From: Candidatus Woesearchaeota archaeon
GTDB lineage: Archaea > Nanobdellota > Nanobdellia > Pacearchaeales > GW2011-AR1
Assembly (NCBI GenBank): GCA_964362915.1
Contig: CAYIGH010000001.1
Span: forward strand, 24,056 to 88,055
Length of the DNA stretch: 64,000 bases
Reading direction: 5' to 3'
Program-made: the position numbers and the translations under genes
The notes under the pieces: model-generated
What the model was told of the DNA's origin: nothing
What the model saw: only the letters and a program-made list of their open reading frames with translations
The model's database searches: none
Shown: positions 22,506 to 58,366 of the stretch, piece by piece
How the letters are laid out: each line of letters starts with the position of its first letter
Position numbering within the stretch: the stretch's first letter is position 1

Positions 22506-25238
22506 TTAAGCTGTTGTAGTCGTTAACTCTGCGCTTGTTGCTGAAGTACCTTTGTACTTCTTGCCAACATCTGTCATTACATTTGCTTGTGTTGTTAAGT
22601 ATTTAGCAGCGTTTGTTGTGTCACCAGCATTGTATCCTGCAACAAGGGTAGCAACTTTTCCTCCTGTTCTGGAGAAAGTTTCTATTAAGAATTGACCTGC
22701 ACCGATACCTGTCTTTGCAGTGAAATCAGCGCCGCATGTCCTTGTGGATACGCTCAGTAATTGAGCAGCTACTGTATTAACACAGCTTCCGCCAATAACA
22801 ACCAAGTTCTTGCCTGCGACAGAGGTTGCTTCCGCATCAGTTACAGAAACAGAGCCAAGTGAAGTAGCTCCTGAGCCCCCTCCTCCTGTGCTTGTAGTTG
22901 TAATCTCTGCAGTGTTTTCTGCTAGGTAAATATTGGCATATACCTGCTCATTTGGATAACTTATTGTTGCTTTGTACTGGTCAGAATCTCCTTGATCAAT
23001 AGTTGCAATTGTACCGAACAAGTCTGCTTCTTTAGTCATCTTGCTATTACTAGCAAGAGCAATAGCATCCCATGTTCCGTCAGCCTGCCATGTTCTTTTT
23101 ACATCGTCAACACCAATTCCGTCATTACTGTCTCCGCCACTCTCTAATGTAACAACAAGAGCCTGATATAGTGAATTGTCATCTTTTTCCTCAAAGACAA
23201 TAATTGCTGGTAGAAGCACATTAGCTCCTCCATCAGGATTTTTTAAGTATAGATTAGTTGCGTTTCTTGTATTATCTCCAGCACCTGTAATGTTAAATGT
23301 AAGCGCCCCTATAGTGCCTGAAACAGAATTTCTATTAGCAGTTGCTCCTAAAGTAGATAGGTTCAACTGAGTTGTTGTGCTACCGAATGTAATGTTAACT
23401 GCTATATTTGCCGCATTACCATCAAAATTTGCTGTTGGAGTAGTAAATGTTATATCGGTAAAACTATCTCCATCTGGAATCTTTATCGTAGTTAACGCAT
23501 TAGTGCCAACGTCTCCATCCCAGTCATTAAGCGAGATGTTAAGCAAGGGCTCGTAGAAAGCTAACTTTGCGCCGCCTTTTGTTTGTATTGTGGGGTACGC
23601 AACTGCAGCGCCTGTTCCAGAGCTATCAGGGTAATTTAATGTTACCCAATTATTAGCATCGGATGATGTTCCATTGTATTTAACATCGTAAACTTTTCCA
23701 CCTATACTGGCGGTTCCTACTCCATCTGATGTAACAGTAGTTTCAATAGTATCTCCAGAGAAGACATCTATAAAGGTTGCCTTATCTCCGCTAATACCTG
23801 CTGTGGTTGAATTTGTAATTCCACTTACTCTGATTAGCCTGCCATTCTCTTCGTTGCCAACAACGACATAATCGTCTTTGAATAGATTTTGTTTTTCAAG
23901 AACAGTTATATTATGCCCATCGCTGTCTCTTTGCAGTTCAACTTGACCTGGTGTAGTCCAGTTTTTAGCAAACTGAATTGAAGCAGTTTTGCCGTCCTTA
24001 TTTGTAAAGGTGACTTCCATTTTATCGTCCCCGTTATAACCCATCTTTATATCTTCTCTATTTGCTGTATCATCGTCCTTAATGGACAAGCCTGAAAAAT
24101 CAAGTTTAAAGGATCCGAATACAGGGTCTTTCATTGATGTTCCTGCAACGACAGCATCCTTATCACTGTTAGGCGCACGTATGCTAACTATTATTTTAGT
24201 AGCTGCTGTTGTTCCACCTGTAATGGTTGTTGATGTGCCGTCAACTACGGTGTCTTCTTCACCCATAGTTACCGAGCTTCCTTGTGTTGTTGATAACTTG
24301 ACTTTCTCTGCGCCTGCAATAACGCTTGCAGATAGCTTGAGATTTGTCTCGTCAGCATTTGTAATTGCTATTGTAACACCGTTTATTTTTTTAGAAGCGT
24401 TTTCACTTACTTCTTTTGTTTCTGACTTTCCTTCACTATCTGTAACTTTAACAGTTGCAGCAGTATCTGATGCAGAAACTAATTCAACAGTATATGTTTT
24501 ACCAGTGATTGTTACTTCTGCTGAAGGATCGTCGCTACTTAAAGCAACTTTTTCTGCAGTTTTTAACAAGACTAATTCTGTATCGCTTGTTGCAGAAGCG
24601 ATTGTAAACTTCTGTCCAAACATTGTTATATCCTGGCCCTCTGAATCAGCATGCGTTAAATTTACGGCTTTGCTGAATGTTAGAGATGCATTGTAGATAT
24701 AATTTGCTGTTGTTGTACTTGTAGTAATTAAAAACTGAGGGTCTAGATCGCTTGTTGGCTGTTTGCCAGCATAGGTTATCTGAGGATTGAACCCTAGCTC
24801 AATTGTTTGTGTATAACTCGAGTCTACATTTCCTGAAAAACTACCATCTTTTAAGACAGTTGGAAGATCAGTTTTAGTCACAACAGATTTTACTGTATTT
24901 AATGTGTCATTAATGAAGAGTTTTGTCCCTCCAGAAAACAATGGAGCCGCTTCTCCTGTTACTGAAGTAGATGTTCCTGTGCCTCCGCCTTTTGCTGTAG
25001 CTTCAGCTAACTTAGTAGATAAATAACTACTAATATCTGTTACAGCAACAAGGTCAGTATATGCGGCATTTGCGCCGCCATGAACGATGGCAACATCAGC
25101 TGCACCTCCAGCTACGAATGGTGCTGGAAAGTTTGCTGCGGCAGCCAAAGCTACTGTAGAACTTAACATTGCAGTACTAGCAAGAACTGAACCTATTTTT
25201 TTGAATGAAAATCTCATTTTTTTTAAACCTCCTTTCAT
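22506..25238 (-). CDS. S-layer-like secreted surface protein (Thr/Ser/Gly/Ala-rich)
   Basis: 910 aa. Signal peptide MRFSFKKIGSVLASTAMLSSTVALAAAA. Low-complexity T/S/G-rich beta-rich sequence with many NxT/S sequons. Confidence 0.55.
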   Translation of the reverse strand: MKGGLKKMRFSFKKIGSVLASTAMLSSTVALAAAANFPAPFVAGGAADVAIVHGGANAAYTDLVAVTDISSYLSTKLAEATAKGGGTGTSTSVTGEAAPLFSGGTKLFINDTLNTVKSVVTKTDLPTVLKDGSFSGNVDSSYTQTIELGFNPQITYAGKQPTSDLDPQFLITTSTTTANYIYNASLTFSKAVNLTHADSEGQDITMFGQKFTIASATSDTELVLLKTAEKVALSSDDPSAEVTITGKTYTVELVSASDTAATVKVTDSEGKSETKEVSENASKKINGVTIAITNADETNLKLSASVIAGAEKVKLSTTQGSSVTMGEEDTVVDGTSTTITGGTTAATKIIVSIRAPNSDKDAVVAGTSMKDPVFGSFKLDFSGLSIKDDDTANREDIKMGYNGDDKMEVTFTNKDGKTASIQFAKNWTTPGQVELQRDSDGHNITVLEKQNLFKDDYVVVGNEENGRLIRVSGITNSTTAGISGDKATFIDVFSGDTIETTVTSDGVGTASIGGKVYDVKYNGTSSDANNWVTLNYPDSSGTGAAVAYPTIQTKGGAKLAFYEPLLNISLNDWDGDVGTNALTTIKIPDGDSFTDITFTTPTANFDGNAANIAVNITFGSTTTQLNLSTLGATANRNSVSGTIGALTFNITGAGDNTRNATNLYLKNPDGGANVLLPAIIVFEEKDDNSLYQALVVTLESGGDSNDGIGVDDVKRTWQADGTWDAIALASNSKMTKEADLFGTIATIDQGDSDQYKATISYPNEQVYANIYLAENTAEITTTSTGGGGSGATSLGSVSVTDAEATSVAGKNLVVIGGSCVNTVAAQLLSVSTRTCGADFTAKTGIGAGQFLIETFSRTGGKVATLVAGYNAGDTTNAAKYLTTQANVMTDVGKKYKGTSATSAELTTTTA

Positions 25239-25952: not shown

Positions 25953-26462
25953 TTATCCATAGCAAAGCTTTAATGTGGCAGAGATAGTTCCTGGATAGGC
26001 AGGTATTAATATTTCAGCTCCTCTTGCTGAATAAGAGCAATCGCCTTGATATATAATTATTATTTCTTTTGATATTGTATTTGTTGAATATATTGATTTA
26101 AATTCATATCCTTTGATATTAGCTTGCTCATTTACAAGAAAGCTCTTAGTTATAACATTGTTAAATGTCTTGTTTAATACTATGCATGGGTCTTCTCCTG
26201 AGATACACAAAGAAAGTCCGTTATTGCATTCTTTAATAAGTTCGTTTAATTTTAGATAGTTCGGTTCATAGGAAATAGAGCAGGAAGTTGTTAATTCCAT
26301 TGCACTTTCTAAAAATTGATGAATGTCTTTACTTTCTTGCACTAATGTATTATTGCCTCTGATTGAAAATCCCAGTATAATTGCTCCTACAATAGCAATT
26401 ATTACTACTATAAAAACGAATCCTACCATTTCTTCTTGGGCTTTTTTAAATTTTATTTTCAT
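25953..26462 (-). CDS. class III signal peptide (pilin-like) protein 4
   Basis: N-terminus MKIKFKKAQEEMVGFVFIVVIIAIVGAIILGF. Overlaps the upstream gene by 4 nt. Confidence 0.55.
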   Translation of the reverse strand: MKIKFKKAQEEMVGFVFIVVIIAIVGAIILGFSIRGNNTLVQESKDIHQFLESAMELTTSCSISYEPNYLKLNELIKECNNGLSLCISGEDPCIVLNKTFNNVITKSFLVNEQANIKGYEFKSIYSTNTISKEIIIIYQGDCSYSARGAEILIPAYPGTISATLKLCYG

Positions 26463-26986
26463 TTATCTATATTTTTGCCTGAGGCATAAATTCTGCCTAG
26501 TTCGCACTTTGTATATCCTCCCTTTTCTCTAGTCCAATAACAAATAGTAACAAAGGCACTCTTAGGAGAACCTATTTCTTCATTTTTAATTAAGGTTATT
26601 GTTTTACAATTTGGATAATTTGCTTTATCACATTCGTTTTTTTCTTCTGAATAAACATTTTCTATTTGAAGGAAATCTAGATTCCAAAACTCGTCATATG
26701 ATCTTCTCTCTTTTAATGAGAATGCTTTGTCTAAATCTATGCAATTAGAACATGTATGTGTTGTTAATACAAATTCAGGGGTTGATGCTAGTTTTCGTAC
26801 AGCCTCTAAAGCTTCTTCATCCTGCAAAGAAGAGGCTGTTTTTCTAATGTTCGATAAACTTATAGAAAAATAGAATAAAGCAACTATGGCTAAAAATATA
26901 ATTAAAGCAACTAAAACAAACGCCATCTGCTGTATTTTAAGCTGGGCTTTTTTATTATTAAAATAGCTTACATGAAAGTGCTTCAT
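26459..26986 (-). CDS. class III signal peptide (pilin-like) protein 3
   Basis: N-terminus ...NNKKAQLKIQQMAFVLVALIIFLAIVALF. Overlaps the upstream gene. Confidence 0.5.
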   Translation of the reverse strand: MKHFHVSYFNNKKAQLKIQQMAFVLVALIIFLAIVALFYFSISLSNIRKTASSLQDEEALEAVRKLASTPEFVLTTHTCSNCIDLDKAFSLKERRSYDEFWNLDFLQIENVYSEEKNECDKANYPNCKTITLIKNEEIGSPKSAFVTICYWTREKGGYTKCELGRIYASGKNIDK

Positions 26987-27914
26987 TTTTCCTCCTTATT
27001 ATTTCAGCATCAAAAAACAATTCTCTTAAATCTAACGAGCTATTAAAAGCAAATAGTTTATTTGTATATGATGATAAATCTACTTCTAAATTAGAAGCAC
27101 AACCTTTGGAATTTAATAATAAACTCTTCGAATAATAGAGTAAGCTTAATTCTGATGTTCTTTTCATTAATCTTTTTAGATGGCACTCATAAACTTCTGG
27201 AGAGGAAAAGATTGCAGCATATAAAAGAGCAGATGTTTCGAAGTAAACTCTATCTGCGAACTTCTTTTTTAGACTTCCTTTTATATTTCCGCTAGAATCA
27301 AGAGAAATATCAATATCGCAGCCAGAAGTTGTAAAACAAACCTTTTTTGCTTCTTTTTTGCATTCAGAAGCTGAAGAAGTTATATTTATGCTTATTCCTA
27401 AGTCTAATATTTCATCTTCTATCTCTCTTGGGGGATTAACAAAGCAGAAATTTTCATCAGATGGCCATAAATATATTAAATCAGCTATTTTAAATGGCAT
27501 ATTGAATGGTTTAGCAAAAACAAAATATTCCTTTCCTTCTATTACATCTTGGGAGAAGATATATTTATTATTAAATGTAGAAGGAAAACCTGGCTTGCCC
27601 CATTCATCATTTAATAGTTTGGTAGCGAGACTTATTTTTTGCGTTCCGAAAGTTCCCTGAGAGGATTTACATTCATTATAGATGCGCGTTTCTTCTGGAA
27701 TTGAAATTTTTGTTATCTTGCCTGTTTCTAAATTCGTTTCTATTGGTGTTAATATTATGCCCAGTTGTTTTCCAAGTACTGTATCTTGCTTTGTTTTTTC
27801 TGTCTTTATAAATTCTGTTGAGGCATATACTGCTAAAAATATAATTACTGCTCCTACTATTATTGCAAAAATCCAAGAAAAACTAAACTCAAGGGCTTTT
27901 TTGTTGAATATCAT
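26958..27914 (-). CDS. class III signal peptide (pilin-like) protein 2
   Basis: N-terminus MIFNKKALEFSFSWIFAIIVGAVIIFLAV. Two-nt gap from the upstream gene. Confidence 0.55.
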   Translation of the reverse strand: MIFNKKALEFSFSWIFAIIVGAVIIFLAVYASTEFIKTEKTKQDTVLGKQLGIILTPIETNLETGKITKISIPEETRIYNECKSSQGTFGTQKISLATKLLNDEWGKPGFPSTFNNKYIFSQDVIEGKEYFVFAKPFNMPFKIADLIYLWPSDENFCFVNPPREIEDEILDLGISINITSSASECKKEAKKVCFTTSGCDIDISLDSSGNIKGSLKKKFADRVYFETSALLYAAIFSSPEVYECHLKRLMKRTSELSLLYYSKSLLLNSKGCASNLEVDLSSYTNKLFAFNSSLDLRELFFDAEIIRRKNEALSCKLF

Positions 27915-27915
27915 T

Positions 27916-28404
27916 TTATCTGCTTAGAGTAACAAGTGCCTCAAATTGATCTCTTTTTGTCTTTAGTTCTATTCTATTCTCTCTAACTGGAATGCAAAAA
28001 AATTCATTAGTCTTTACATGCTCTAATTTTATTGAGGATAGCGAGGAATCGCAGGCCTTTTGAGGCGGATAGAGAAAAACATTTCCATTGCTATTTATAA
28101 ATGCTTTTTTTATATTATTATATTCTTGAGGGGCCTGAGCTATATTGCCGAAACATACTAACTCAATTCCTGAAGGGATTGTTGCAGGATATTTTTCATT
28201 GGGAAAGATGTCCTGATGAATTGTTGACTGCCATGCTTCTTCTATGTATTCTTCTAAATCATTATAGAAAAGGCTGATTTCTGTGCATTTACTAAGTGAA
28301 ATAAAGCTTCTAATTACATAGAAAGCAATTCCGACTATAGCAATTATAACGATTATTGAAAAAATCATACTAAAAGATATGCTAAACTGGCCTCTTTTTT
28401 GCAT
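27916..28404 (-). CDS. class III signal peptide (archaeal type IV pilin-like) protein 1
   Basis: N-terminus MQKRGQFSISFSMIFSIIVIIAIVGIAF, a KRG|Q prepilin-peptidase-type site followed by a hydrophobic helix. Confidence 0.6.
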   Translation of the reverse strand: MQKRGQFSISFSMIFSIIVIIAIVGIAFYVIRSFISLSKCTEISLFYNDLEEYIEEAWQSTIHQDIFPNEKYPATIPSGIELVCFGNIAQAPQEYNNIKKAFINSNGNVFLYPPQKACDSSLSSIKLEHVKTNEFFCIPVRENRIELKTKRDQFEALVTLSR

Positions 28405-32172: not shown

Positions 32173-33048
32173 TTATTTTTTGCCTAAGAAAAGTGAATTG
32201 AGCGTATAAATTGGATCAGAAAGATCAATCCTTTCATCAATATTAGCATCGGCTGCTTCGATGCACATAGGTCTAGGGCCACCCAAAAAAAGCCAATTTA
32301 AAGTAAAAGAAACATCTGAGATATTAATTTTTTCATCTGAATTTGAATCTCCTCTTATAAAATTTTCACATTCCCCAGCTCTATCATAAGATACAAGGAA
32401 ATTATTAAAATAAGTAATAGAAGAAAAATTTTCGATTGTGCTATCATACACGCCAAGTCCAATTCTTCCTTCAATAACTGATGGTAAATAAATATTTAAT
32501 AATCTTGTTTTTTCGCTATCTAATTCCCTCTCGTTAATAGAAAAATGCCAGCCTTGATTATCATAACATATTCCTAGTGTATTAATGCCATTTAAAATAA
32601 TATTATTAGTTAAATCATTTGCATAAGTAAAACTATCTCTGGAAGATTGTCTATTTAACCAATATTGTTGATTAGTTTCTGAATACCCGTTTACACCAAA
32701 TTCAAAGTACGCCTCTCCAATATCTCCAAAAATTAAACTAATTCTATCGCCTTGTATCCAATTAGATCTTCTAAAATCCACGCTGATACAGAGGTTCTCC
32801 ATATTACTATAATTTCTATCTGTAAAGAGGAATCGTAAATAACCAGATTTTTCTTCAAAGTCTCTAGCTTCTAAATTGTCCGATGTAGTAACCCAATTCT
32901 CACTGGGCATTGCAATATACTCTCTATTAATTTTACCTTCAAAACTTTCTTTCCATGTTGCCCTTTCTTGTGCTTCAGATGTAGGATACACAAAATTTGA
33001 TAATCCAAATCCGGCTATCGCTACTAAATTTCTTAATGATTTTCTCAT
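32173..33048 (-). CDS. secreted protein with C-terminal type-I dockerin-like double Ca-binding repeat
   Basis: Signal peptide. C-terminus DSNSDEKINISDVSFTLNWLFLG and DANIDERIDLSDPIYTLNSLFLG fit the dockerin D-x-N-x-D-x-x-I-N/D-x-x-D EF-hand-like pattern twice. Confidence 0.6.
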   Translation of the reverse strand: MRKSLRNLVAIAGFGLSNFVYPTSEAQERATWKESFEGKINREYIAMPSENWVTTSDNLEARDFEEKSGYLRFLFTDRNYSNMENLCISVDFRRSNWIQGDRISLIFGDIGEAYFEFGVNGYSETNQQYWLNRQSSRDSFTYANDLTNNIILNGINTLGICYDNQGWHFSINERELDSEKTRLLNIYLPSVIEGRIGLGVYDSTIENFSSITYFNNFLVSYDRAGECENFIRGDSNSDEKINISDVSFTLNWLFLGGPRPMCIEAADANIDERIDLSDPIYTLNSLFLGKK

Positions 33049-33176
33049 AAAGATTTATATCTTATTAGATATATAAATTTTTATATTATGCAGTGTAAAT
33101 CTTCAAAAAGGTATATATACTACTTTTTCTTCAAGAAATATACAAGATGTTATAATAAGATGGGTGAAATTTTAAA

Positions 33177-35474
33177 ATGGATAAAATAGCAAATATAACT
33201 CTATTCTCTTTTATAGGATTAATATCTTTTATAATCATATTTTCTATCTTCTTTGCCACTTCTCAACAAACAACCATCGAAGAAGAGATTTTTGTTCCTT
33301 CTGTACAAAATAACCAAGAGATTATCTATTATGATTATAAATTTTCAAATACGTCTGGAGTTATTATATTAACGAAAAGAGAAGCATCTTGTTTTTGGAA
33401 ACCTGACGATATTGACGATGGTTGGAAAAATTGCGAATCCATCTTTGAAATAGAGAATCAAAAGGGGGATAAGCCTATTATAAGTTTTCCCTTCATTAAT
33501 TTTAGTTTTGCTAAAAATAATGTTAGAAACCATAGTATATATTTCTCAAACACATATACAATAATAAATGAAACATATAATAATTTTTCAAAAACTTATT
33601 TTGGAGATGTTATTGAGGAGGTTATACAACTTAAAAAGAGACAATTTGTGAATTTTACTTCTCTACCGAACTATCTCGATACTTCAAAACCTTTTGCTAT
33701 CAAATTAACATTTGAGGTTCCAAAATATGAAGAAAATATATTTAATTTTACTATTTCAGGAGAAGAATTTATTGGTTTTATAGACCCGGATATTAATAGC
33801 TGTAGTTTCTTAGGGGTCCCCAATACAGTTTATACATTAGTCATTAATGTTAGTTCGTTAGGCACATGTTTTACGATACTGGCAAATAATATTACATTAA
33901 ATGGTAACGGTTATCATATTAATTATAGTGTAGCGGGAACTAGTAATAGATATGGGATTTATATAAAAGGCGCAAATCAAACTACTATAAAGAATTTTAG
34001 AAAAATATTTGAGGAGAATAGTAATGGAATTCATAAGTATGGAATATATTTTGATAAAGCGCATGAAGGGATCGTAAATAATGTTACTATAGAAACAATT
34101 GGAATTTCAAGTGATGGTATAAGAATAAATAATGGTAATGATACAAAAATAAACAATACTAAAGTAATTACTCTTGGAGATAGTGCGGTGGGCATTTATT
34201 TATACGGCTCGAGCTCATCAATTATAAATAATAATAATATCACCACCAATAAGACTTCTGCGAGAGGAATTGAACTTGGTGCAAGATCAAACTTTAATAA
34301 ATTAAGCAATAATATAATTACTACAGAGGGCAATGAATCAACGGGTATTTTATTAGATTCTTCTTCAATAAATATTATCAATAATAACATTATTAGAACA
34401 TTCAATAATAATGCGGAGGGCATCAACTTTGCTGATGCACAAAATAATACAATAAATTATAGTATTGTTACAACTCTTAGTAATAATGCAAGTGGAATTT
34501 TTATAGGCGGTTCGTCAGATGGTAATCTAATTTATAACTCTTTCTTCAATTCATCTTTAGCAAATGATATTTTATTCTTTTGGACCTCTGCTGGAACTCT
34601 TAACCTTACTAATGTAACACTTGCTAATAACAATGTAAACTTTAACCCATTATCAACATCACGACTTAATGTTCACTGGTACTTTGATGCACAAGTTAAT
34701 GATAGCTCGAAAAATCCTCTTGAAAATGTGAATGTTTCTGCATGGGATATTAATAATGTACTAAGATTTAGTGATTTAACAAATAATATCGGTAGGATAA
34801 AACAGCAAGCCCTCCTAGAGTATGTACAGAACAATACTCAAAAAATATATCATACCAATTATACGATAAATGCAACAAAAGATGGTTTCACAGAATCAAA
34901 AAGCGTTAATCTAACTGCAAATACATTTATGACATTTATTCTTCCAACTACCATCATTCTTACATCGGATAATATTGTAGAAGACGGTGATATTAACTAT
35001 GAAATTAGCTCCGGATTATACAAAAGAGATAAAACTTCTATTACTATAGAAATAGGAAATGCATACTATTATATCTCTAGAAGCTATATTGAATTTAATA
35101 CGTCTTCAATTCCAGATAGTGCTATAATCAAAAATGTATCTTTAAATATATCTTTTGATACATTAGGTACTAGGAATTGTACTATTAATGAAGTAAGTGA
35201 ACAACCTTCCATTATATCAAATCAGACTCTTTATATAGATATTGGTAATGGTACTACATATATAAATAATGATGACTTTTGTAGGACAGGTTCGTCAACT
35301 AAATCAAAAGTTGATCTTGGAGCTAGTGCCAATATTGATCTTGAAAATTTACTTTCATCAAATTGGTTTGGTATAGGTATTAAATGGGATAATGAAATAA
35401 CTGCGGCTACTACTGCTTTAACTAATGCTTCTGAAAGCTCCTCATCACCACTCCTTACTGTAAGTTATATTTAA
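33177..35474 (+). CDS. membrane-anchored surface protein with right-handed parallel beta-helix (PbH1) repeats
   Basis: N-terminal TM. Asn-rich repeated ~22-aa units (NNVTIETIGISSDGIRINNGNDTKINNTKVI...GIELGARSNFNKLSNNIITTEG...). Confidence 0.6.
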   Translation: MDKIANITLFSFIGLISFIIIFSIFFATSQQTTIEEEIFVPSVQNNQEIIYYDYKFSNTSGVIILTKREASCFWKPDDIDDGWKNCESIFEIENQKGDKPIISFPFINFSFAKNNVRNHSIYFSNTYTIINETYNNFSKTYFGDVIEEVIQLKKRQFVNFTSLPNYLDTSKPFAIKLTFEVPKYEENIFNFTISGEEFIGFIDPDINSCSFLGVPNTVYTLVINVSSLGTCFTILANNITLNGNGYHINYSVAGTSNRYGIYIKGANQTTIKNFRKIFEENSNGIHKYGIYFDKAHEGIVNNVTIETIGISSDGIRINNGNDTKINNTKVITLGDSAVGIYLYGSSSSIINNNNITTNKTSARGIELGARSNFNKLSNNIITTEGNESTGILLDSSSINIINNNIIRTFNNNAEGINFADAQNNTINYSIVTTLSNNASGIFIGGSSDGNLIYNSFFNSSLANDILFFWTSAGTLNLTNVTLANNNVNFNPLSTSRLNVHWYFDAQVNDSSKNPLENVNVSAWDINNVLRFSDLTNNIGRIKQQALLEYVQNNTQKIYHTNYTINATKDGFTESKSVNLTANTFMTFILPTTIILTSDNIVEDGDINYEISSGLYKRDKTSITIEIGNAYYYISRSYIEFNTSSIPDSAIIKNVSLNISFDTLGTRNCTINEVSEQPSIISNQTLYIDIGNGTTYINNDDFCRTGSSTKSKVDLGASANIDLENLLSSNWFGIGIKWDNEITAATTALTNASESSSSPLLTVSYI

Positions 35475-36615: not shown

Positions 36616-37148
36616 TTTATGAATCCGCTGAAGATTCTTATCTTTTGAGAGAAGAAGTTCTAAACTATTCTAAGGGAAAAAGAGTTTTAGATGTGGGAAG
36701 TGGTTCTGGGATTCAGGCTCAAGCAGCCTCAGATGCAGGGGCTAAATCTGTTTTGGCTGTTGATATTGACGAAGAAGCTGTTAATGAATTAAAAAAGAAA
36801 GGAATTAAAGTGAGAAAGTCTGATTTATTTTCAAATGTGAAAGGTAAATTTGATTTGGTTGTTTTTAATCCTCCTTATTTGCCTATGGATAAAAGAGAGG
36901 ATAAAGCAAGTGCATTGAATACTTCTGGCGGAAAGAAAGGAGATGAAATTATAATTAGATTTTTGAGAAATGTTAAAAAATATTTAAATAAAGATGGAAT
37001 TGTGCTGATTGTTATTTCTTCTTTGACTCCTAGAAAGAAGATATTGGGGGTTTTGAAAAGAGAAGGATTGAAAAAACAAATTGTTTCAGAAAAGAAACTT
37101 TTTATGGAGAGTTTGGAAGTTTGGGAGATAAGTCGTTTAGAGTTTTAA
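36612..37148 (+). CDS. HemK/PrmC-like N5-glutamine methyltransferase (Mtq2-type)
   Basis: VLDVGSGSGIQAQAAS (motif I) and VVFNPPYLP (NPPY) motifs. Confidence 0.7.
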   Translation: MIYESAEDSYLLREEVLNYSKGKRVLDVGSGSGIQAQAASDAGAKSVLAVDIDEEAVNELKKKGIKVRKSDLFSNVKGKFDLVVFNPPYLPMDKREDKASALNTSGGKKGDEIIIRFLRNVKKYLNKDGIVLIVISSLTPRKKILGVLKREGLKKQIVSEKKLFMESLEVWEISRLEF

Positions 37149-37508
37149 TCTGTGAATCGCCTGATCCTGCCAGAGCTTTCTATAAAAATAAAGATAGTAT
37201 GAAAGTTCTGAAGAGCTTTTTGCAAAGATTATTTTGTTATTTGTTATTATTTCATTTTTTATATAAAGTGGGAGCAATTCAAATATATGGATGTCGTATT
37301 TTGGATTTTTTGCCTGAATTGATAGTGTTTTTTGATAAATTTCTTTTGCTTTTTTTATATTTCCAGTAACAATGCATATATCAATGTCGCTCCTTTGTGT
37401 TGATTTTCCGTTTATATAAGAGCCATAAAGAAGAACTGCAAGAACTTTATTTTTAAATTTGCCAAAATCTGTTTTGATTTGCTCTATAATTTCAGATTGC
37501 ATTTTCAA
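37137..37508 (-). CDS. nucleotidyltransferase-domain protein (MntA-type antitoxin)
   Basis: LAVLLYGSYINGKSTQRSDIDICIV, the GS...DxD motif. Confidence 0.65.
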   Translation of the reverse strand: MKMQSEIIEQIKTDFGKFKNKVLAVLLYGSYINGKSTQRSDIDICIVTGNIKKAKEIYQKTLSIQAKNPKYDIHIFELLPLYIKNEIITNNKIIFAKSSSELSYYLYFYRKLWQDQAIHRLKL

Positions 37509-37884
37509 GTTTTTTTAATATTTTTTTAATTTGGGGAAGGAGGATTTGAATTGATTCTTTAGCTATTATATCGTCTGTTTTGTTGTATTTATGAATAATC
37601 CTGTTTCTTAAGCCATTTGCATCTTCAAGGATTTTTGCTTCATTATCTCCTATAATTTTAAGCTGCATTAATTTTTCAATATTTTTATAGTCATCCTCTA
37701 CTAATTTCTCCTTGTCTTTTAGAAGCATGGCGGCTATATCTGAAATTACTTCTACAATCTCTTGAAATGCTTTATATGATGCTAGCTTAGATTTTTCATC
37801 CTGAGAAGAAATCCATTCTTCTATTTCTATTATCCTCTTTTCTGCTAATTCAATTTTTTCCAGGTATCTTTTCTTTCTCTCCAT
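37492..37884 (-). CDS. HEPN-domain protein (HepT/DUF86-type toxin)
   Basis: R-x4-H motif GLRNRIIHKY. Overlaps the downstream MNT gene by 17 nt. Confidence 0.6.
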   Translation of the reverse strand: MERKKRYLEKIELAEKRIIEIEEWISSQDEKSKLASYKAFQEIVEVISDIAAMLLKDKEKLVEDDYKNIEKLMQLKIIGDNEAKILEDANGLRNRIIHKYNKTDDIIAKESIQILLPQIKKILKKLENAI

Positions 37885-37973: not shown

Positions 37974-38768
37974 CTATCTTAACTCAGATTCAATAGCTTG
38001 TTGAAATGCAGAGAAAGGCTGGGCTCCGCTTATAAGCCTTCCATTGATAAAGAAAGCAGGTGTACCTTGAACCCCGTCACGCTGTCCTTCATCCATGTCT
38101 TTCTTAACAAGAGCTGCCATTTTTCCAGATTGAAGACAGGAATCAAATTGCTGAATATTTAACCCTATTTCATTAGCCCATTGTCTAAAACTTCCTATAC
38201 TTAAGGCTTGCTGATTTTCAAATATTTTATCATGCATTGCCCAATATCCGTCGTTTCCTTTTTGTTCCCCTGCACATCTTGCAGCCTCAGCAGCCTTTTG
38301 TGCATTAGGATGAAAACTTAAAGGAAAATCCTTATACACTAATTTTACTTTCCCGCTAGTGATATATTCACTCTCAATCTGAGGCAATGTTTCAGCATAA
38401 AATTTCCCGCAGAAAGGGCATTCATAGTCAGAATATTCAACCATAATTACAGGAGCATTTTCATTTCCTTTATAAGGCGCACCTTCAATATTTATTTTAG
38501 CCATGGCGGGCTCTGATGGGGGCTCTTGGATAGATGGATTAACTATATTCTCTTCTTGGATAACATTTCCTGTTATACTTCCGCCATTTCCAGAAAAGAA
38601 AACCCCATAGCTATTAATCAAAGTTAAAATAAATGTAGCAGAAACAAGAACAGTTAGCAATTTCATTCTGTCAAGATTTTTTAAATTATAAAAAAAATTG
38701 CTGTTTACTTTAACATTAGATGTGTCTGCTATAATTGATTCTTTAGCTTCTATTCTTTCTTCTTCCAT
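37974..38768 (-). CDS. DsbA-like thiol:disulfide oxidoreductase, membrane-anchored
   Basis: CPFC active site inside a thioredoxin-fold context (YSDYECPFCGKFY). N-terminal TM. Confidence 0.75.
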   Translation of the reverse strand: MEEERIEAKESIIADTSNVKVNSNFFYNLKNLDRMKLLTVLVSATFILTLINSYGVFFSGNGGSITGNVIQEENIVNPSIQEPPSEPAMAKINIEGAPYKGNENAPVIMVEYSDYECPFCGKFYAETLPQIESEYITSGKVKLVYKDFPLSFHPNAQKAAEAARCAGEQKGNDGYWAMHDKIFENQQALSIGSFRQWANEIGLNIQQFDSCLQSGKMAALVKKDMDEGQRDGVQGTPAFFINGRLISGAQPFSAFQQAIESELR

Positions 38769-38806: not shown

Positions 38807-41800
38807 TTAATATCCCATAAATATCTTTCTTCTCATATGTACTTTTAAATAAATAACCACAATGACAGCAACTACAATCAATGATAAACTAATCCATATT
38901 ATGCCACTAAGTGCTCCTCTGTTCTCAGAAGGTATTTTTTCCTGCTCTCCTGCTTCAGAGCCACTATCTACCCCTTTTTCTCCGCTTTCTATTGGTGGTT
39001 GACTTAATTCTCCCTCTGATTCAGATGTTGTTGCATTCTCTTTCTTTGGTTTTGAAACACTGGCCCCTCCAGAGCCCCCACCACTACTACTTCCTCCAGA
39101 ACTTCCTCCTGAAGAAGTGGATTCTCTATATGTGGAAAACTCGCAGAATGGAATCTGCCATATGCAATTTGTCGAATCAATTAAAGTTGCTTCAGATGTT
39201 CTATCAACACAATTTGCTCCATTATTATCACAATGAAACAATTGATTACATGTTCCGCTAAATGGTATCTTTACTCTGCAGACCTCTGGATATAAGTTAT
39301 TTATTATCTTGTCTCTTGTCTCAGAAGTTAATCCTGCGTATGTTGAAGTATTAATAATTGAACCTGCCGTGCTAATTGTCCTAACCTTATCATTCAATCC
39401 TGTTTTAGTCAATGAGGCATTAATAAATTCAAAGTAATTACTACCATCGGTATTATTGAGCTTAATATTAATACGTCTTCCTTCTGTATAGTTAGTTTTC
39501 CTGCCAGCATTAGCTCCACATACTTGTCCTTGTATATGCTCATAAACGTTATTTTGATCAATATCATATGATACTGTCCAGCCAGATGGTGCCTTAATCC
39601 TAGTCACAAAACTGCAGAAACCGCATTTATTATTTAGGGTAGCAGTGACGAATGAACTACATTTGCTAATAGCGCATTTATTTTTGTCATCACAAGCTTT
39701 TAGCTTATAATAATAAGTCGTCCCATTAACTAGATTATAGCGCAACGAACGAACTCCGCCGTCATTGTAAATATCTGCTTTATGCCATAACTTATAATCT
39801 CTTACATTGGTGCTAAGCACTCCAACATCATTAATTGTTGCATTTAATGTAATACATCTTGAATCATTTCCGTAAAACTCAAGGCTCCCATTTGCAGGCT
39901 TATTGGTATCATACATAATTAAAGCAGAGTCTGGATATTCTTCTATCTTAACGCCTACAACTTGCGGCGTTTTAGTATCAGTATAATTCGCGGCATTTAC
40001 ACCTGTGCTAGAGCATACAGATAGAAAATCACAATCCCAATCAAAGCAATCTATATTGCCGTCGTTATCATTGTCTATATTATCAAAGCAATCCTCATAT
40101 TGCACATATCCCTTCCTTAATATGTCCTCAAACTTTGCTGCGTCTGCTCCATAGTCAAAACAGCCTGCAATTTCAAAGTCAACAGCTCCAGGTGTAGTAT
40201 AACCAGGGCCAGCTGTATCAGTTGGAAATGTAACATTGCCAGTTCCAGGATTCCCAATTGTTGCAGCATATACTCTCATATCTTTTGTTGAATCATATAA
40301 TGTAGGGAATCTATTCAAGTCTGCCTTTTGTACAGCTATCATAGGCCCGCCAATTTCAGAACACATTAGCTTCTTCCATACATTTAATTTGATATCACTA
40401 GCTGCCCACTGGGAATTTTCGCATGTATAAGCATTAAATGTTTCTACTGCTTTTTCTTTAGTAGCATTCCATTCAGAGGCATATCTAAATCTAAATTCGT
40501 ACCCTTTAGCAGAAGAATTATGGTTTAATTCACATCCTCCGCTAGTTAAACCATCTGTATCCAAATAAACAAAGAATATTACTGTATCATTTCCGTTGCC
40601 AATTCTTTCAATTCCGTAACTCGTTAATTTTTCTTTGTTGCATAAAGAGGCATTAGTAAAGTCCAACATATTAGCTCCAAATCCAAATCCATCTCCCATA
40701 TCTTTCATTCCAATACCACAAATATCTACACTTCTTTGACTTATCCCTGCCTCAGGACAATTATCTACTGCTATTGGCACAGGAGCCCCTGTTTCTATAC
40801 TATTAAATGATTCAACTGTTCCAGCTGTATTGCACCATCCAGTAACCCATTTGCATCCACTTCCACATGCTCCCTGAGTTGTAGCATTAAAGCAGGTTGG
40901 CTCACATCCATAAGAAGTAGCATTACAATATAGATTTGCGTTACATAATGTGGCATTATTTACTAAAGTTGTATTGCTCCAGCATTGGTCCATGACATTA
41001 GTACAGTAATTTCCATTAGAATTCCACCAACATCCATTAGTAGCATTACATCCTACAGCCACAGATGTATAACTCCAGCATTCTTTGCTCCAATCAACTT
41101 CGCATCTTGGGTTAGATTCTGGGAACCATCCGCAACTGATATTTATAATAGTCTTATTCGTGCAGAATGTTTGATTACCATTATATTTCCAGCATTCAGC
41201 CCCGGATGCTCCTCCAACTCCACCTCCTCCCACAACGGAGCCTCCAGAAAATCCTCCTCCTTTAGGATCACACCATCCAGGATTATTCCACTTACATCCT
41301 GATATTGCTGCGCAATTTGTTTGGTTATTAGAACTTGTTGCATTATAGCAAGTATTTGATTGCTGTTCTTCACACCAGCCATTTTCTGCCTTCCATAAAC
41401 ATCCTGAAGTAGTTGTACAGCTAGTTGAAGAAGTTATATTAAAGCATGCTGGCTCACATGTTCCGCCTCCTCCTCCATAATCTCTCCAATTGCAGCTAAC
41501 TTGAGTAACACCATTACAACTAGCTTTAGTTGTTTGGCTCCAGCATCTGTCAAAATTATTTGCACACCATGCGCTGTTAATTCCTCCAAATGTTTCATTT
41601 CTCCACCAACACCCGTTATTTTCACAATTTGATTGAGCATTATAATTCCAACAACTAGTGCTCCAGTTTACTTCACAATGGGGTTGTGACCATGTATCAA
41701 CTCTCCAACTGCATCCAGCAGTAGTGCTACATGAGGAATTTTCATATTTCTGCCAACAACTCTTTGGCTTGAAATCATTATGGTCACACCATCCTCCATC

Positions 41801-44740
41801 TGTTTTACACCATTCAGTTCCTTTTCCAAATCCATCACACCATGTGTCATTTGTCCAGCCACAATCAGTAGTGCTATAACATTGACTTTGATTCAAATTA
41901 AAGCACTTTTCTCCTATACTCCAGTCTCTTTCACACCAACCGCTTCCTGTTCCATTGTTCCATTCACAATTAGAACTTTTATTAGCATAGAACCTAAAAC
42001 TAACATAATAAATATCATTTGAGCCTCCTCCGCCAACCATATATGTATTGTTAGTAAAGTTAATTGTTTGTCTCGTATAATCTGCTGTAAAGTTTCCACT
42101 GCCTAGAATAGTCCCGCTTTTATTTGTCATATTTACGCTTCCGCTTATCCATCCTGTTCCCAAATTACCTAACTGGAATGTCTTGCTTTGATTTATATTG
42201 TTTGCAGACAATCTTGCAGATGATATATTTAACGTTTCATTAATAACAGTAGTATCTCCTAAACATTCTACTTCAGAATTGTCATATCTCCAACAAGAAC
42301 TTCCTTTAAAATCACACCATCCTTTTGGATTCCATGTATCATTTACCCATTCACAACTATTAGTTTCACATTGAGATTTAGTTGTCCAGCCAAAACAATC
42401 TCCTTCTACAAATCCGCACCATGTATCTGAATAACAACTTGGATCGCCACAATCTACTAGTGCATTATTATTGTTGTCTATACCATCCCAGCATATTTCA
42501 ACGTCCTCTCCAATATTTTGCACACAGCTCCCATCATTATCAGTTCCCTGCCATTTACAGCTTCCAGTAGAATTCAACGCGCTTCTCCCTTCATTAGCAC
42601 ACTTATCTCTTGTCTTGCATCTGTCACATGCGTCAAGGCATGTTTTTTCTCCTTTATCTGCGCAATATCCACCTGTTAAGGTGCTATTCTCTATAATCCA
42701 TTTACATCCTCCACCATTTGAATTTGCTTTGCTCTCTGAACAGAAGCATGCTGGAGTCAAACAATTTCCTGCAGAACTTCTTGAGGCATTATTCTTAGAA
42801 TCTCCAAGAAATGTACAATCTCCACATACTGAATTACAATCACCAGCCAAACCTTTTTTCCATTGTTCTTTTGCTTTGCAATATCCTATTCTATTTGGAG
42901 CACTAGTATCTGCTTCAAATTCACAATATCCTAATTTGCTTCCTATACAAGCTGATTTAGCATTTGTTGCATTAACTAAATTACCGTTACCATCTTTTAT
43001 TTCGCATGCAAAGCAAGCTTTATCACAATTTTCTTCATCATCAAATTTGTATTCGCATCTCCCTGTAGGAACAGAAACACTTCCCTCACAATAATTCTCT
43101 ATAATCCACTTTCCTCCAGCAGCCTCACAATTCCTTTGATTTTCAATCTTTACAATATTCTGTGTACTATTCCCAAAAACATCAGTTACTTTGAATTCGC
43201 ATTTGTTTGTTGAATTATTCCATTTACAAGGCATGTACCAAGGGTCTCCTGCAATTTTCTCGCAATTTGAGCTTGTTTCTGCATCTTCACATGCCTTCTC
43301 GCCATTTGGAGTCTGATCCAATTGATCAAAACAGCTCCTTGACTGCCTGTTCTCCGCACAAGTTCCATTCTGCCAGCTGCAACAAGTGCTTAAAGAAGCG
43401 ACATTGTTGCATAAATCAGATTCATTTATTTGATAACAAAATATACCCTTTGCATTAATTGCAGTTCCATTCACCTCATTTGTATTTTTGCATAAACTGC
43501 TAGTATAATTACACCCTATTACGCTATTGCACTTTGTAGAATTTGTATCAAAAATGTAACATCCTGGATTCCATTCATTTAAAATGCTACCATTGATATT
43601 CACAAAATCGCCGCTTCCAAAAGTCGGAGTTGTGCAATTTCCTCCTTTAGTTGAATCCTTCCAATCATTCGCCTGCCACCAACAATAAAATGTATCATAA
43701 CATGCTTTTTCTGTGGTTACATTAGCACAGCTTGTAGAAGAAACCTCCTTATAGCACCATCCATTTGTCGTATTTCCAGTTGGATTACCACTCCATTTAC
43801 ATGTAATACCATAAGAGTTTTGCTCGCATTTAGACTGATTTCCTAGTTTAAAAGAGTCCCAATTCCAGCAATTAACCTCTTCGCATGATCCTGTAGTATT
43901 ATAAGATTGCCATAGACAGTTTTTTTTGTCCTTACAACTAGATTCTGTATTCATATCATAGCAAGAATCTGTAACGCACAAATTATTGATACTCTGCCAT
44001 TTACAAGATTCTCCTAGAGTATTATTTACGCAAGCTGTTTGATTAGTATAATCGAAACTCGAACAGCCTTTTTGTTGACAAGATCCCCATTTCCATTCAC
44101 AATTTATCCCTTGAGCAGATTCACATGCTGTTTTATTCGAATATAATGTACTATCCCAACAATTATTTTCTCTACAATAACTTCCAGAAGCACCCCATGT
44201 ACAATTAATTCCTCTCCAATCTAGCCCTGAGTTACAAGCTGATTGTGACGTATAAATATTACAGCCTTTTTCAATACATTGTCCCCATCCGCATCCTGTT
44301 GTATTCTTGCATGCTGCTTCAGTAGCAATACCCCAACACCCTACATTCAGGCCACCTGTAACTTGATAGCATTGCCCGCTCCAACTACACGATTTGTTAA
44401 AGTAATTATTCTCACATTGAGTTTGATTAGTAGCTGAGAAAGCCCAACAACTTGCAGTTGTACACCAAGAACTAGCTGTTCCATTTGTCCATGTACAATT
44501 TTTCCCTGCAATGGTTGTTGTCGTACATGAAGACTGATTAGCCAAACTCCAGCAATTTAATTCTTCACACCAGCTTCCCCAAGTATCATTTCTCCACAAA
44601 CATCCATTTGAAAGCGTGCAAGTGGATGAAGAAGTATAAGTCCAGCAACTTGCAGCGATAACAAAACTCAAAGATAAAATTATACCAACTGTTATAAAAG
44701 ATAGGATTGTAAAAAATCTAGACTCTTTTAACACCATCAA
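38807..44740 (-). CDS. giant (1977 aa) Cys/Trp-rich extracellular protein with N-terminal signal/TM and C-terminal TM anchor
   Basis: Recurring C-x-W / NCW / CxWxxxxW motifs and very dense NxS/T sequons. Gly/Ser linker near the C-terminus followed by TM IIWISLSLIVVAVIVVIYL and a basic tail. Confidence 0.65.
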   Translation of the reverse strand: MMVLKESRFFTILSFITVGIILSLSFVIAASCWTYTSSSTCTLSNGCLWRNDTWGSWCEELNCWSLANQSSCTTTTIAGKNCTWTNGTASSWCTTASCWAFSATNQTQCENNYFNKSCSWSGQCYQVTGGLNVGCWGIATEAACKNTTGCGWGQCIEKGCNIYTSQSACNSGLDWRGINCTWGASGSYCRENNCWDSTLYSNKTACESAQGINCEWKWGSCQQKGCSSFDYTNQTACVNNTLGESCKWQSINNLCVTDSCYDMNTESSCKDKKNCLWQSYNTTGSCEEVNCWNWDSFKLGNQSKCEQNSYGITCKWSGNPTGNTTNGWCYKEVSSTSCANVTTEKACYDTFYCWWQANDWKDSTKGGNCTTPTFGSGDFVNINGSILNEWNPGCYIFDTNSTKCNSVIGCNYTSSLCKNTNEVNGTAINAKGIFCYQINESDLCNNVASLSTCCSWQNGTCAENRQSRSCFDQLDQTPNGEKACEDAETSSNCEKIAGDPWYMPCKWNNSTNKCEFKVTDVFGNSTQNIVKIENQRNCEAAGGKWIIENYCEGSVSVPTGRCEYKFDDEENCDKACFACEIKDGNGNLVNATNAKSACIGSKLGYCEFEADTSAPNRIGYCKAKEQWKKGLAGDCNSVCGDCTFLGDSKNNASRSSAGNCLTPACFCSESKANSNGGGCKWIIENSTLTGGYCADKGEKTCLDACDRCKTRDKCANEGRSALNSTGSCKWQGTDNDGSCVQNIGEDVEICWDGIDNNNNALVDCGDPSCYSDTWCGFVEGDCFGWTTKSQCETNSCEWVNDTWNPKGWCDFKGSSCWRYDNSEVECLGDTTVINETLNISSARLSANNINQSKTFQLGNLGTGWISGSVNMTNKSGTILGSGNFTADYTRQTINFTNNTYMVGGGGSNDIYYVSFRFYANKSSNCEWNNGTGSGWCERDWSIGEKCFNLNQSQCYSTTDCGWTNDTWCDGFGKGTEWCKTDGGWCDHNDFKPKSCWQKYENSSCSTTAGCSWRVDTWSQPHCEVNWSTSCWNYNAQSNCENNGCWWRNETFGGINSAWCANNFDRCWSQTTKASCNGVTQVSCNWRDYGGGGGTCEPACFNITSSTSCTTTSGCLWKAENGWCEEQQSNTCYNATSSNNQTNCAAISGCKWNNPGWCDPKGGGFSGGSVVGGGGVGGASGAECWKYNGNQTFCTNKTIINISCGWFPESNPRCEVDWSKECWSYTSVAVGCNATNGCWWNSNGNYCTNVMDQCWSNTTLVNNATLCNANLYCNATSYGCEPTCFNATTQGACGSGCKWVTGWCNTAGTVESFNSIETGAPVPIAVDNCPEAGISQRSVDICGIGMKDMGDGFGFGANMLDFTNASLCNKEKLTSYGIERIGNGNDTVIFFVYLDTDGLTSGGCELNHNSSAKGYEFRFRYASEWNATKEKAVETFNAYTCENSQWAASDIKLNVWKKLMCSEIGGPMIAVQKADLNRFPTLYDSTKDMRVYAATIGNPGTGNVTFPTDTAGPGYTTPGAVDFEIAGCFDYGADAAKFEDILRKGYVQYEDCFDNIDNDNDGNIDCFDWDCDFLSVCSSTGVNAANYTDTKTPQVVGVKIEEYPDSALIMYDTNKPANGSLEFYGNDSRCITLNATINDVGVLSTNVRDYKLWHKADIYNDGGVRSLRYNLVNGTTYYYKLKACDDKNKCAISKCSSFVTATLNNKCGFCSFVTRIKAPSGWTVSYDIDQNNVYEHIQGQVCGANAGRKTNYTEGRRINIKLNNTDGSNYFEFINASLTKTGLNDKVRTISTAGSIINTSTYAGLTSETRDKIINNLYPEVCRVKIPFSGTCNQLFHCDNNGANCVDRTSEATLIDSTNCIWQIPFCEFSTYRESTSSGGSSGGSSSGGGSGGASVSKPKKENATTSESEGELSQPPIESGEKGVDSGSEAGEQEKIPSENRGALSGIIWISLSLIVVAVIVVIYLKVHMRRKIFMGY

Positions 44741-49187: not shown

Positions 49188-50200
49188 GTATAAGTATTTT
49201 ATTTGTACCAATCCTGGCAAGTTTTTTTGTAACTCTATTCATAATACCTTTTTGGATTAGAAAGGCAAAACAAATAGGCTTAGTCTGGACTGATATTAAT
49301 AAATTAAATAGCCAGAAGGTAGCAGGGTCTGGTGGAATTATGGCTATGTGCGGTTTTGTTGTTGGTGTACTTTTGTATATTGCTTATGTTGTATTTATTC
49401 TTGCAAATTATAATTCGCATTTAATAGAAACTCTGGCTCTATTGAGCGTTATATTAATTCTAACAGGAGTAGGATTAGTTGATGATTTATTAGGATGGAG
49501 AAAGGGCGGATTATCAAGGAGGTCTAGAATAATAATGGTATGTTTCGCTGCTATTCCTTTAATTGTTATTAATGCTGGAAAGAGTATCGTGGCTATTCCT
49601 TTTATAGGAACAATTGACTTGGGTCTTATTTATCCTTTAATTATTATCCCCATAGGAATTATTGGTGCGACAACTACCTTTAATTTTCTTGCGGGTTTTA
49701 ATGGTTTGGAAGCTGGTCAGGGAATTCTATTGCTAACGGCTTCTGCATTAGTATCTTATTTTATGGGGAACAGCTGGCTTAGTGTTATTGCTTTGTGTAT
49801 GGTGGCATCTTTAATAGCATTCATATTTTATAATTTTGATCCTGCTATTGTATTTCCTGGCGATTCTCTAACCTATAGCGTTGGAGGATTGATAGCTGCT
49901 GTTTCTATATTGGGAAACTTTGAAAGAGTTGCAGTATTTTTCTTTATACCTTATATTATTGAATTTGTATTGAAAACTAGAGGGAGATTGATAAAGCAAA
50001 GTTTCGGAAAACCTCAAAAAGATGGAAGTTTGGATTTAAGATATGATAAGTTGTATGGACTAGGGCATGTTGCCATAGTTGGCTTGAAAAAAACAGGTAT
50101 AAAGCCAACTGAAAAGAAAGTTGTATTCTCAATCTGGATATTTCAAATTATAATTATAATTCTAGGATTTATTATATTTAAAAGAGGAATATTTGGATAA
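49184..50200 (+). CDS. glycosyltransferase family 4 (MraY/WecA/GPT-like) dolichyl-phosphate sugar-1-phosphate transferase
   Basis: Polytopic. DD motif (VDDLLGW) in a cytoplasmic loop. Translationally coupled to aglB. Confidence 0.5.
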   Translation: MSISILFVPILASFFVTLFIIPFWIRKAKQIGLVWTDINKLNSQKVAGSGGIMAMCGFVVGVLLYIAYVVFILANYNSHLIETLALLSVILILTGVGLVDDLLGWRKGGLSRRSRIIMVCFAAIPLIVINAGKSIVAIPFIGTIDLGLIYPLIIIPIGIIGATTTFNFLAGFNGLEAGQGILLLTASALVSYFMGNSWLSVIALCMVASLIAFIFYNFDPAIVFPGDSLTYSVGGLIAAVSILGNFERVAVFFFIPYIIEFVLKTRGRLIKQSFGKPQKDGSLDLRYDKLYGLGHVAIVGLKKTGIKPTEKKVVFSIWIFQIIIIILGFIIFKRGIFG

Positions 50201-51405: not shown

Positions 51406-51550
51406 TGTTATTTACTACTCTGTTAAATAAAGATTATTATGATGAAGTATATTAAATCGCGAATTGTGTGAGGCATTATCTTTTATAGAAAATAATAAAG
51501 ATTCAATCTCTAAACCTCCAATAAATCAAAGTCCAAATAGTCTCTAACCT

Positions 51551-52921: not shown

Positions 52922-53073
52922 CGGTATTCTAGATAATGCTTATTTATAAATGTATCGGTATTTAGAATACTTAAGTTTTAGTTAACTTTTATTCATTAAT
53001 TTACAGTAATTACTACTTCAAAAAATAACAAAATTTGGAGAAGGTTTAAATAGTTGAAAAGTCTGAAAATTTT

Positions 53074-53487: not shown

Positions 53488-53490
53488 CAT

Positions 53491-56086: not shown

Positions 56087-56145
56087 TTCCCATATATAAA
56101 CCCTATTGTATATATATTTAAAATGAATGAATTAAATGATTTCTT

Positions 56146-58336: not shown

Positions 58337-58366
58337 CTTTTTAAAGAAAAGAATGATTTAAATTAA

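Follow-up and report, generated by a model that had tools for sequence, protein, structure and literature searches.

What is the role of a dockerin-type module at the end of a small, putatively secreted protein encoded in an archaeal genome? This question is raised by a gene for a protein of 291 amino acids (aa) on contig CAYIGH010000001.1, within the stretch of 64,000 nucleotides analysed here (the window). A sequence-only reading of this locus had described a secreted protein with a lectin/ConA-like beta-sandwich followed by a canonical double dockerin repeat. The protein consists of two domains: an N-terminal domain with a ConA-like fold and a C-terminal module that is homologous to dockerins. 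The balance of evidence leans toward a secreted protein whose lectin-like domain is tethered to a surface partner through a Ca2+-dependent, disulfide-clasped docking tag.

The gene is real and conserved, as it was assembled twice independently and has a homologue with 55% identity over its full length (P0002). The two assemblies are Hainich groundwater metagenomes (well H51, 0.1 µm fraction) that hold an identical copy of the protein with the same neighbours, on contigs of 17.3 and 16.8 kb. In this 0.1 µm fraction, DPANN archaea have been reported.

Homology of the C-terminal module to dockerins

The C-terminal 66 residues of the protein (ECENFIRGDSNSDEKINISDVSFTLNWLFLGGPRPMCIEAADANIDERIDLSDPIYTLNSLFLGKK) contain two segments in which a Ca2+ loop is followed by an amphipathic helix. 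The loops read D234-S-N-S-D-E-K-I-N-I-S-D245 and D267-A-N-I-D-E-R-I-D-L-S-D278, and both carry D, N, D, N or D, and D at EF-hand positions 1, 3, 5, 9 and 12, respectively. All six-frame open reading frames (ORFs) of the window together contain three copies of the corresponding motif (D.[ND].D..[IVL][ND]..D), two of them in the 291-aa protein. When its residues are shuffled, a mean of 0.006 motif matches is obtained, and a pair at 15-30 residues from each other was seen in none of 500 shuffles. Both 22-aa loop-plus-helix segments of the sequence-only reading are therefore present, as a pair far beyond chance. No further dockerin module was found in the window, and the only other EF-hand-like loop (DNDNDGNIDCFD) lies at about aa 1556 of a 1977-aa protein encoded at 38807-44740.

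The predicted secondary structure agrees with this assignment. An AlphaFold model built on an alignment of 15 sequences, with a mean predicted local distance difference test score (pLDDT) of 84.6, places helices at residues 243-255, 263-266 (short) and 277-288, with block-mean pLDDT values of about 78-91 over residues 231-290. This succession of loop-helix, short helix and loop-helix is the dockerin layout. Fold searches with the whole model were dominated by matches to the N-terminal domain, and a dockerin superposition was not obtained from them.

Pfam Dockerin_1 (PF00404) is the top match of the whole protein (E=0.0036, 17.9 bits), and the module alone scores higher (E=2.5e-4, 21.6 bits). 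With a gathering score of 22.9 bits for this family, the match is present yet formally borderline. Low-GC single-copy relatives behave likewise (16.7-21.6 bits); low-GC dockerin copies fall just below the Pfam threshold and therefore go unannotated, and the database's precomputed Pfam field for the 291-aa protein is '-'. The related modules at large are less ambiguous. All seven modules of a family alignment (A2) match PF00404 (best E 8.6e-6), and an exhaustive HMMER search returned 15,674 relatives at E<=1e-3, most of them aligned only over aa ~225-290, compared to three or four matches for each of the word-indexed homologue searches. Sampled relatives score 40-343 bits on Dockerin_1 and carry up to 12 copies per protein. 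Against the PDB, a search with the single sequence gave only three matches at E<10, all of them dockerins and all weak (E 0.17-0.6), while the A2 profile retrieved the dockerin of CelS (2mte/1daq) at E=1.4e-6. Of its five best PDB matches below E=1e-4, four are labelled dockerins, as are nearly all top matches, with EF-hand proteins such as SCaMC and polcalcin among the weaker ones. Furthermore, the module is better conserved than the protein that carries it, being 70% identical in P0002 compared to 55% for the whole protein. The profile matches in the PDB, the PF00404 matches of all seven modules and the large number of relatives establish that the module belongs to the dockerin family, at profile level only. 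The earlier description of a double dockerin thus holds in so far as the module is homologous to type I dockerins, but 'canonical' is too strong for loops with a Glu at position 6 in a cysteine-bearing, non-cellulosomal subtype.

A cysteine-bearing, non-cellulosomal subtype

The features of this subtype were derived from 415 modules in 158 proteins, comprising the 150 best matches and the homologues found earlier. The subtype has the motif F-x-R-G-D-x-N-x-D-G...L-F-L-G-G...C...D-A-A-D-x-N-D-D-G. Of 334 modules, 273 have a loop-to-loop spacing of 33 residues, the mode of the subfamily, and the 291-aa protein has the same spacing. At loop position 6, Gly is found in 74% and Glu in 4% of 746 related loops; both loops of the 291-aa protein have Glu. 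In 144 of the 158 relatives, no more than 60 aa separate the end of the last module from the C-terminus, and at the loci checked, the module is typically found close to or at the C-terminal end of secreted proteins with several domains, many of which are large.

A Cys between the two repeats (Cys262 in the 291-aa protein) is present in 319 modules. A flanking Cys accompanies it in 316 of these 319, compared to 46 of the 96 modules without the inter-repeat Cys (Fisher p ~1e-33, for sequences that are not independent of one another). In most relatives, the partner Cys lies in a short tail following the module (IPPPN.GG.G.DLT.D.L.C). The 291-aa protein and P0002 do not have this tail and carry Cys227 directly upstream of the module instead, a rarer arrangement in which the flanking Cys is upstream only (6 of 319 modules). 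From this pairing, we infer a Cys227-Cys262 disulfide that would clasp the module. A gene of the DsbA/Thioredoxin_4 family is located 5 kb away (37974-38768, minus strand), directly downstream of a giant gene for a Cys-rich protein. Such a DsbA-like gene fits disulfide formation outside the cytoplasm and thus bears on the proposed clasp.

The closest copies of the module were sought in one genome per GTDB species, in a scan limited to the patterns of a three-sequence alignment, a seven-sequence alignment being too variable. Within these patterns, the closest copies (58-65% identity) are found in metagenome-assembled genomes (MAGs) of Planctomycetota, followed by Zixibacteria, Ignavibacteria, Parcubacteria and rumen Bacteroidales. 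Since the scan is limited to the patterns of the alignment, this all-bacterial list of matches is no proof of a bacterial origin. With the full-length protein as query, the genome collection gave no match, and the source genome is therefore not among the GTDB representatives.

The N-terminal ConA-like domain

The model has pLDDT values above 90 over the N-terminal domain, which forms a jelly-roll beta-sandwich of two sheets and can be superposed on domains of the ConA-like type (Pfam clan CL0004). The predicted structure thereby confirms a ConA-like fold, and the lectin/ConA-like beta-sandwich proposed earlier is borne out at fold level. The matches include CBM66, L-type lectins, calreticulin and DUF1080, at 9-17% identity, the tightest superpositions being those with CBM66 and YesU (rmsd 2.7 A each), both non-catalytic modules.

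At the sequence level, no significant Pfam match was obtained for residues 27-225 and no PDB sequence match for the domain, even with a profile of 11 family members; one of these 11 shows a weak Laminin_G_3 match (E=0.013). Residues 27-225 define a small family of ConA-like domains of ~200 aa without a Pfam annotation. The complete succession of signal peptide, N-terminal domain, Gly linker and dockerin is found in about 15 proteins, and the invariant residues in the alignment of 15 members are mostly aromatic residues and Asp (F36, W52, D77, W97). All 15 lie above the median of the set on an index of amino acids with AT-rich codons, most of them among the highest. The contigs of two members, P0045 and P0158, are short, low in GC and uninformative about partners.

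The charged, hydrophobic and 'A.AQ' succession at the N-terminus is kept across the 15 family members, and residues 1-25 have pLDDT values below 50. The signal peptide read from the sequence, together with the conservation of this layout, supports the earlier description of the protein as secreted.

Proposed function and alternative explanations

In the scheme that we favour, the 291-aa protein would be exported through the Sec pathway with cleavage of its signal peptide. Its N-terminal beta-sandwich would most likely bind a glycan or other ligand rather than catalyse a reaction, while the 66-aa module would fold around two Ca2+ ions, probably with the Cys227-Cys262 disulfide as a clasp. The module would serve as a protein-protein docking tag that tethers the lectin-like domain non-covalently to a partner at the cell surface. 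A module of the cohesin type or a surface protein with an equivalent role could be this partner, either on the archaeon itself or on its host.

Several observations weigh against this scheme. Pfam Cohesin (PF00963) was found in none of the 41 ORFs of the window that were scanned, including every ORF of at least 300 aa, at cut-offs that varied from E<=1 to E<=0.001 between scans. A hidden Markov model (HMM) of the cohesin-containing middle regions of eight relatives with a dockerin-cohesin-dockerin layout had no match below E=0.2 in the six-frame translation, and the same holds for phmmer searches with the cohesin regions of P0021 and P0048. The Glu that replaces Gly at position 6 of both loops could weaken Ca2+ binding, and the Dockerin_1 score remains a near miss, under the gathering score for the whole protein and for the module alone. 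Finally, what points to glycan binding is the similarity of the fold, at 9-17% identity, and hydrolases and lyases have this fold as well. The earlier suggestion of a scaffold with cohesins, implied by the dockerin and perhaps to be sought among the large surface proteins nearby, thus found no support in PF00963 or custom HMM matches within the window, and non-cellulosomal dockerins are many.

These results leave room for a module that functions independently of cohesins, a clearly less probable explanation that nonetheless deserves to be taken seriously. The name 'dockerin' would then denote ancestry and not function, and the module would be an EF-hand pair with a Ca2+-dependent stabilising or oligomerising role, or it would bind an S-layer, a glycan or a pilus. 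This would agree with a window in which no cohesin was found, although the search covered 64 kb of the genome. In many relatives, the module is present in 4-12 tandem copies (12 in P0010), which is unlike cellulosomal enzymes and more like a Ca2+-binding repeat array, and the dockerin arrays in giant proteins of Omnitrophota have been interpreted simply as adhesins. In addition, there are many non-cellulosomal dockerins, and some archaea are described as having dockerins and no scaffoldin, as far as the summary in PMC9012536 goes. However, archaeal cohesin-dockerin pairs do bind experimentally (PMC9012536).

The same subtype also has cohesin company elsewhere, as P0021 and P0040 hold both in one polypeptide. 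P0021 has a Pfam Cohesin match above the gathering score (28.3 bits), and that of P0040 lies just under the cut-off (22.4 compared to 24.1 bits). Moreover, where type I dockerins contact the cohesin, the two repeats of the 291-aa protein have near-identical residues (IS...LN and LS...LN). P0040 belongs, together with P0044, P0049, P0053, P0057, P0062, P0066 and P0077, to an abundant and apparently bacterial, high-GC family of ~550-aa proteins, whose two dockerin modules are located N-terminally in those members that were inspected. In P0040, the one member scanned against Pfam, the Cohesin match lies between the modules, a layout of two dockerins flanking a cohesin that would suit a self-linking adaptor.

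A further alternative concerns the N-terminal domain, which might be a catalytic ConA-fold enzyme (like GH16, PL7 or the DUF1080 '3-keto-disaccharide hydrolase'). The protein would thereby correspond to the dockerin-bearing enzyme subunits of cellulosomes. This is improbable. The fold is shared with hydrolases and lyases, but no match to GH16, PL7 or DUF1080 (PF06439) was obtained at E<=1 in the 11 family members, and the PDB gave no sequence match. The GH16 motif ExDxxE is not conserved in the alignment of 15 members, and the tightest superpositions are with the non-catalytic CBM66 and YesU. In the absence of conserved motifs, the GH16 and PL7 readings were rejected; the N-terminal domain shows no glycoside hydrolase or lyase family match and no conserved catalytic motif that would indicate a carbohydrate-active enzyme attached to the dockerin.

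The docking-tag scheme can be extended to a more specific and rather speculative version, which we consider unlikely as a whole. Here, a DPANN archaeon would display the protein as the 'lectin head' of an attachment system of the cohesin-dockerin kind, its disulfide-clasped dockerin being held by a cryptic cohesin-fold domain, unrecognisable by sequence, in one of two large window proteins without Pfam matches (1977 and 910 aa) or on the host cell. If true, an episymbiont would gain a modular and exchangeable recognition of host glycans. How DPANN archaea attach to their hosts is largely unknown, and a putatively secreted lectin-fold protein with a docking tag is a concrete and testable candidate for an adhesin subunit.

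Lastly, the resemblance could be due to chance, to the composition of an AT-rich genome in which D, N, I and K abound, or to an ordinary EF-hand pair without relation to dockerins. Such a reading could draw on the sub-threshold Pfam score and the few EF-hand proteins among the weaker profile matches, but is effectively refuted by the shuffles (0.006 single loops, zero pairs), the 15,674 homologues and the prevalence of dockerins among the top profile matches. The 33-residue spacing typical of the subfamily and the 70% identity of the module in a 55%-identical orthologue also speak against it.

Gene features and genomic setting

The features of the gene are listed in Table 1. The intergenic region contains a TATA-like stretch at 33069-33080, which may have a promoter function.

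Table 1 Features of the gene for the 291-aa protein and the adjoining intergenic region, in window coordinates
Feature	Position	Strand	Basis
Putatively secreted two-domain protein of 291 aa, complete gene	32173..33048	-	ATG-to-TAA ORF, stop TAA at 32173-32175
Predicted Sec-type signal peptide, aa 1-26 (MRKSLR / NLVAIAGFGLSNFVY / PTSEA↓QE)	32971..33048	-	Reading of the sequence; putative cleavage site
ConA-like (lectin/glucanase-fold) beta-sandwich domain, aa 27-225	32374..32970	-	
Dockerin-type module (double F-hand), aa 226-291, extreme C-terminus	32176..32373	-	Dockerin_1 score, profile matches, relatives, predicted helices
Cys227, just upstream of the module	32368..32370	-	Conserved in P0001 and P0002; putative disulfide partner of Cys262
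F-hand segment 1, aa 233-254 (G233-F254, GDSNSDEKINISDVSFTLNWLF)	32287..32352	-	Sequence, motif statistics, predicted helix 243-255
Cys262, invariant between the two repeats	32263..32265	-	Invariant in alignments A2 and A4; putative disulfide clasp
F-hand segment 2, aa 266-287 (A266-F287, ADANIDERIDLSDPIYTLNSLF)	32188..32253	-	Sequence, 33-residue spacing, predicted helix 277-288
AT-rich intergenic region, 128 bp, shared with the divergent beta-helix gene	33049..33176	.	Sequence and ORF layout

The window has a GC content of about 31% and carries several archaeal markers: the gene order S13-S4-S11-RpoD with DUF655, AglB/STT3, an RNase J of the beta-CASP type and an intron-bearing tRNA. The operon, DUF655, AglB and the tRNA make the setting archaeal, and the host of the 291-aa protein is probably a DPANN archaeon. 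The tRNA spans 173 nt (551-723, plus strand; Rfam 46.6 bits), presumably because of a long intron, and is absent from the ARAGORN output. Bacterial contamination was rejected, given that an archaeal ribosomal operon lies on the contig of the gene and that both assemblies place the gene among identical neighbours.

The neighbourhood of the dockerin gene is rich in surface and glycosylation functions. Divergent from it, at 33177-35474 (plus strand), lies the gene for a 765-aa protein with a right-handed beta-helix (NosD-like) that appears to be secreted, and the pair is kept in both assemblies. A gene for a trypsin-like protease is also among the neighbours. A 910-aa protein rich in Thr, Ser, Ala and Gly (22506-25238, minus strand; local GC about 38%) has a signal peptide and no Pfam match, and looks like an S-layer or other major surface protein. 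At 25953-28404 (minus strand), four consecutive small ORFs of 169, 175, 318 and 162 aa without a Pfam match start with KKAQ, KRGQ or KKAL and a hydrophobic helix, resembling archaeal class III (type IV pilin-like) signal peptides.

The 1977-aa protein (38807-44740, minus strand) is rich in Cys and Trp, and contains many N-glycosylation sequons, an N-terminal hydrophobic segment, a C-terminal transmembrane anchor and motifs of the type CxDGxDN...DCxDxxC. It has no Pfam match at E<=0.1, and the GC content of its region (36-39%) is above that of the remaining window. The 1977-aa protein is thus a candidate for a surface scaffold, though a cohesin signal was not found in it. A large cluster for protein glycosylation and surface glycans occupies 46413-61883, with AglB/STT3 (924 aa), a GT4 enzyme, a Wzx-like flippase, a PMT_2/STT3-like protein of 641 aa, four GT2 genes, RmlD and an epimerase/dehydratase. 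Elsewhere in the window, two nucleotidyltransferase/HEPN (HepT-like) pairs (3101-4218, plus strand, and 37137-37884, minus strand) represent modules of the toxin-antitoxin type.

Comparison with known systems

The type I dockerins (PF00404), exemplified by Clostridium thermocellum CelS (PDB 1daq/2mte), likewise consist of two F-hand segments of ~22 residues with 12-residue Ca2+ loops and ligands at positions 1, 3, 5, 9 and 12. The spacing between loop starts is ~32 residues in CelS and ~33 in the 291-aa protein, both modules are C-terminal on a protein that is or appears to be secreted, and their homology is found at profile level (E=1.4e-6). In contrast to CelS, the 291-aa protein stems from a non-cellulolytic organism, and no scaffoldin or cohesin was found in its window. 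It further differs by the Glu at loop position 6, the LFLGG motif, the invariant inter-repeat Cys with a flanking Cys (a putative disulfide) and a Pfam score below the gathering threshold.

Regarding its N-terminal domain, the protein resembles CBM66, a module of the B. subtilis levanase SacC (PDB 4b1m), and DUF1080 (PF06439) by fold, with no sequence match to PF06439 at E<=1. The pairing of a beta-sandwich of the sugar-binding type with a dockerin is itself familiar from many microbes. In the ultra-small Omnitrophota, dockerin arrays are found in giant proteins, some of them alongside DUF1080 domains, and have been read as adhesins.

Among archaea, cohesin and dockerin proteins of Archaeoglobus fulgidus and of the anaerobic methanotrophic (ANME) lineages ANME-1 and ANME-2 are likewise secreted and have no link to cellulose degradation (PMC9012536). 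Those genomes encode cohesins alongside dockerins, whereas none was found in the window of the 291-aa protein, and the host lineage is different, being probably DPANN. Non-cellulosomal dockerins are widespread in Bacteria and Archaea, the cohesin-dockerin pairs of Archaeoglobus bind experimentally and ANME archaea encode many (PMC9012536). Calling dockerins rare in archaea, as the earlier reading did, is therefore an overstatement. Archaeal dockerin proteins have been proposed to function in surface assembly or cell-cell interaction (PMC9012536), and according to the summary given there of Peer et al. (2009), the archaea with dockerins surveyed earlier lacked scaffoldins. The top-ranked literature on DPANN lineages does not mention dockerins, and few papers combine dockerin, cohesin and DPANN.

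The closest sequences are the 'planctomycete-type' dockerins (FxRGDxNxDG...LFLGG...C...DAADxNDDG) from MAGs of Planctomycetota, Zixibacteria, Ignavibacteria and the candidate phyla radiation, with 58-65% identity to the modules of Planctomycetota MAG proteins. They have the motif set, the 33-residue spacing, the inter-repeat Cys and the C-terminal placement in common with the 291-aa protein. The planctomycete-type proteins come from bacteria and are in most cases large (up to >1700 aa at the loci checked), often with several copies of the module and with a Cys-containing tail, whereas the 291-aa protein is archaeal, small and single-copy, and has an upstream Cys instead of the tail. For freshwater Planctomycetes, a 'planctosome' built on dockerin-cohesin pairs of this kind has been proposed (PMC6461901). 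Thus, a widespread and mostly bacterial dockerin subtype, putatively clasped by Cys residues, reaches archaea with small genomes. As both non-cellulosomal and archaeal dockerins are already known, nothing here changes the knowledge of dockerins as such; what the 291-aa protein adds to these systems is a minor architectural variation, with the Cys upstream instead of in a tail and a Glu at position 6 of the loops, and an N-terminal domain family that Pfam leaves unannotated.
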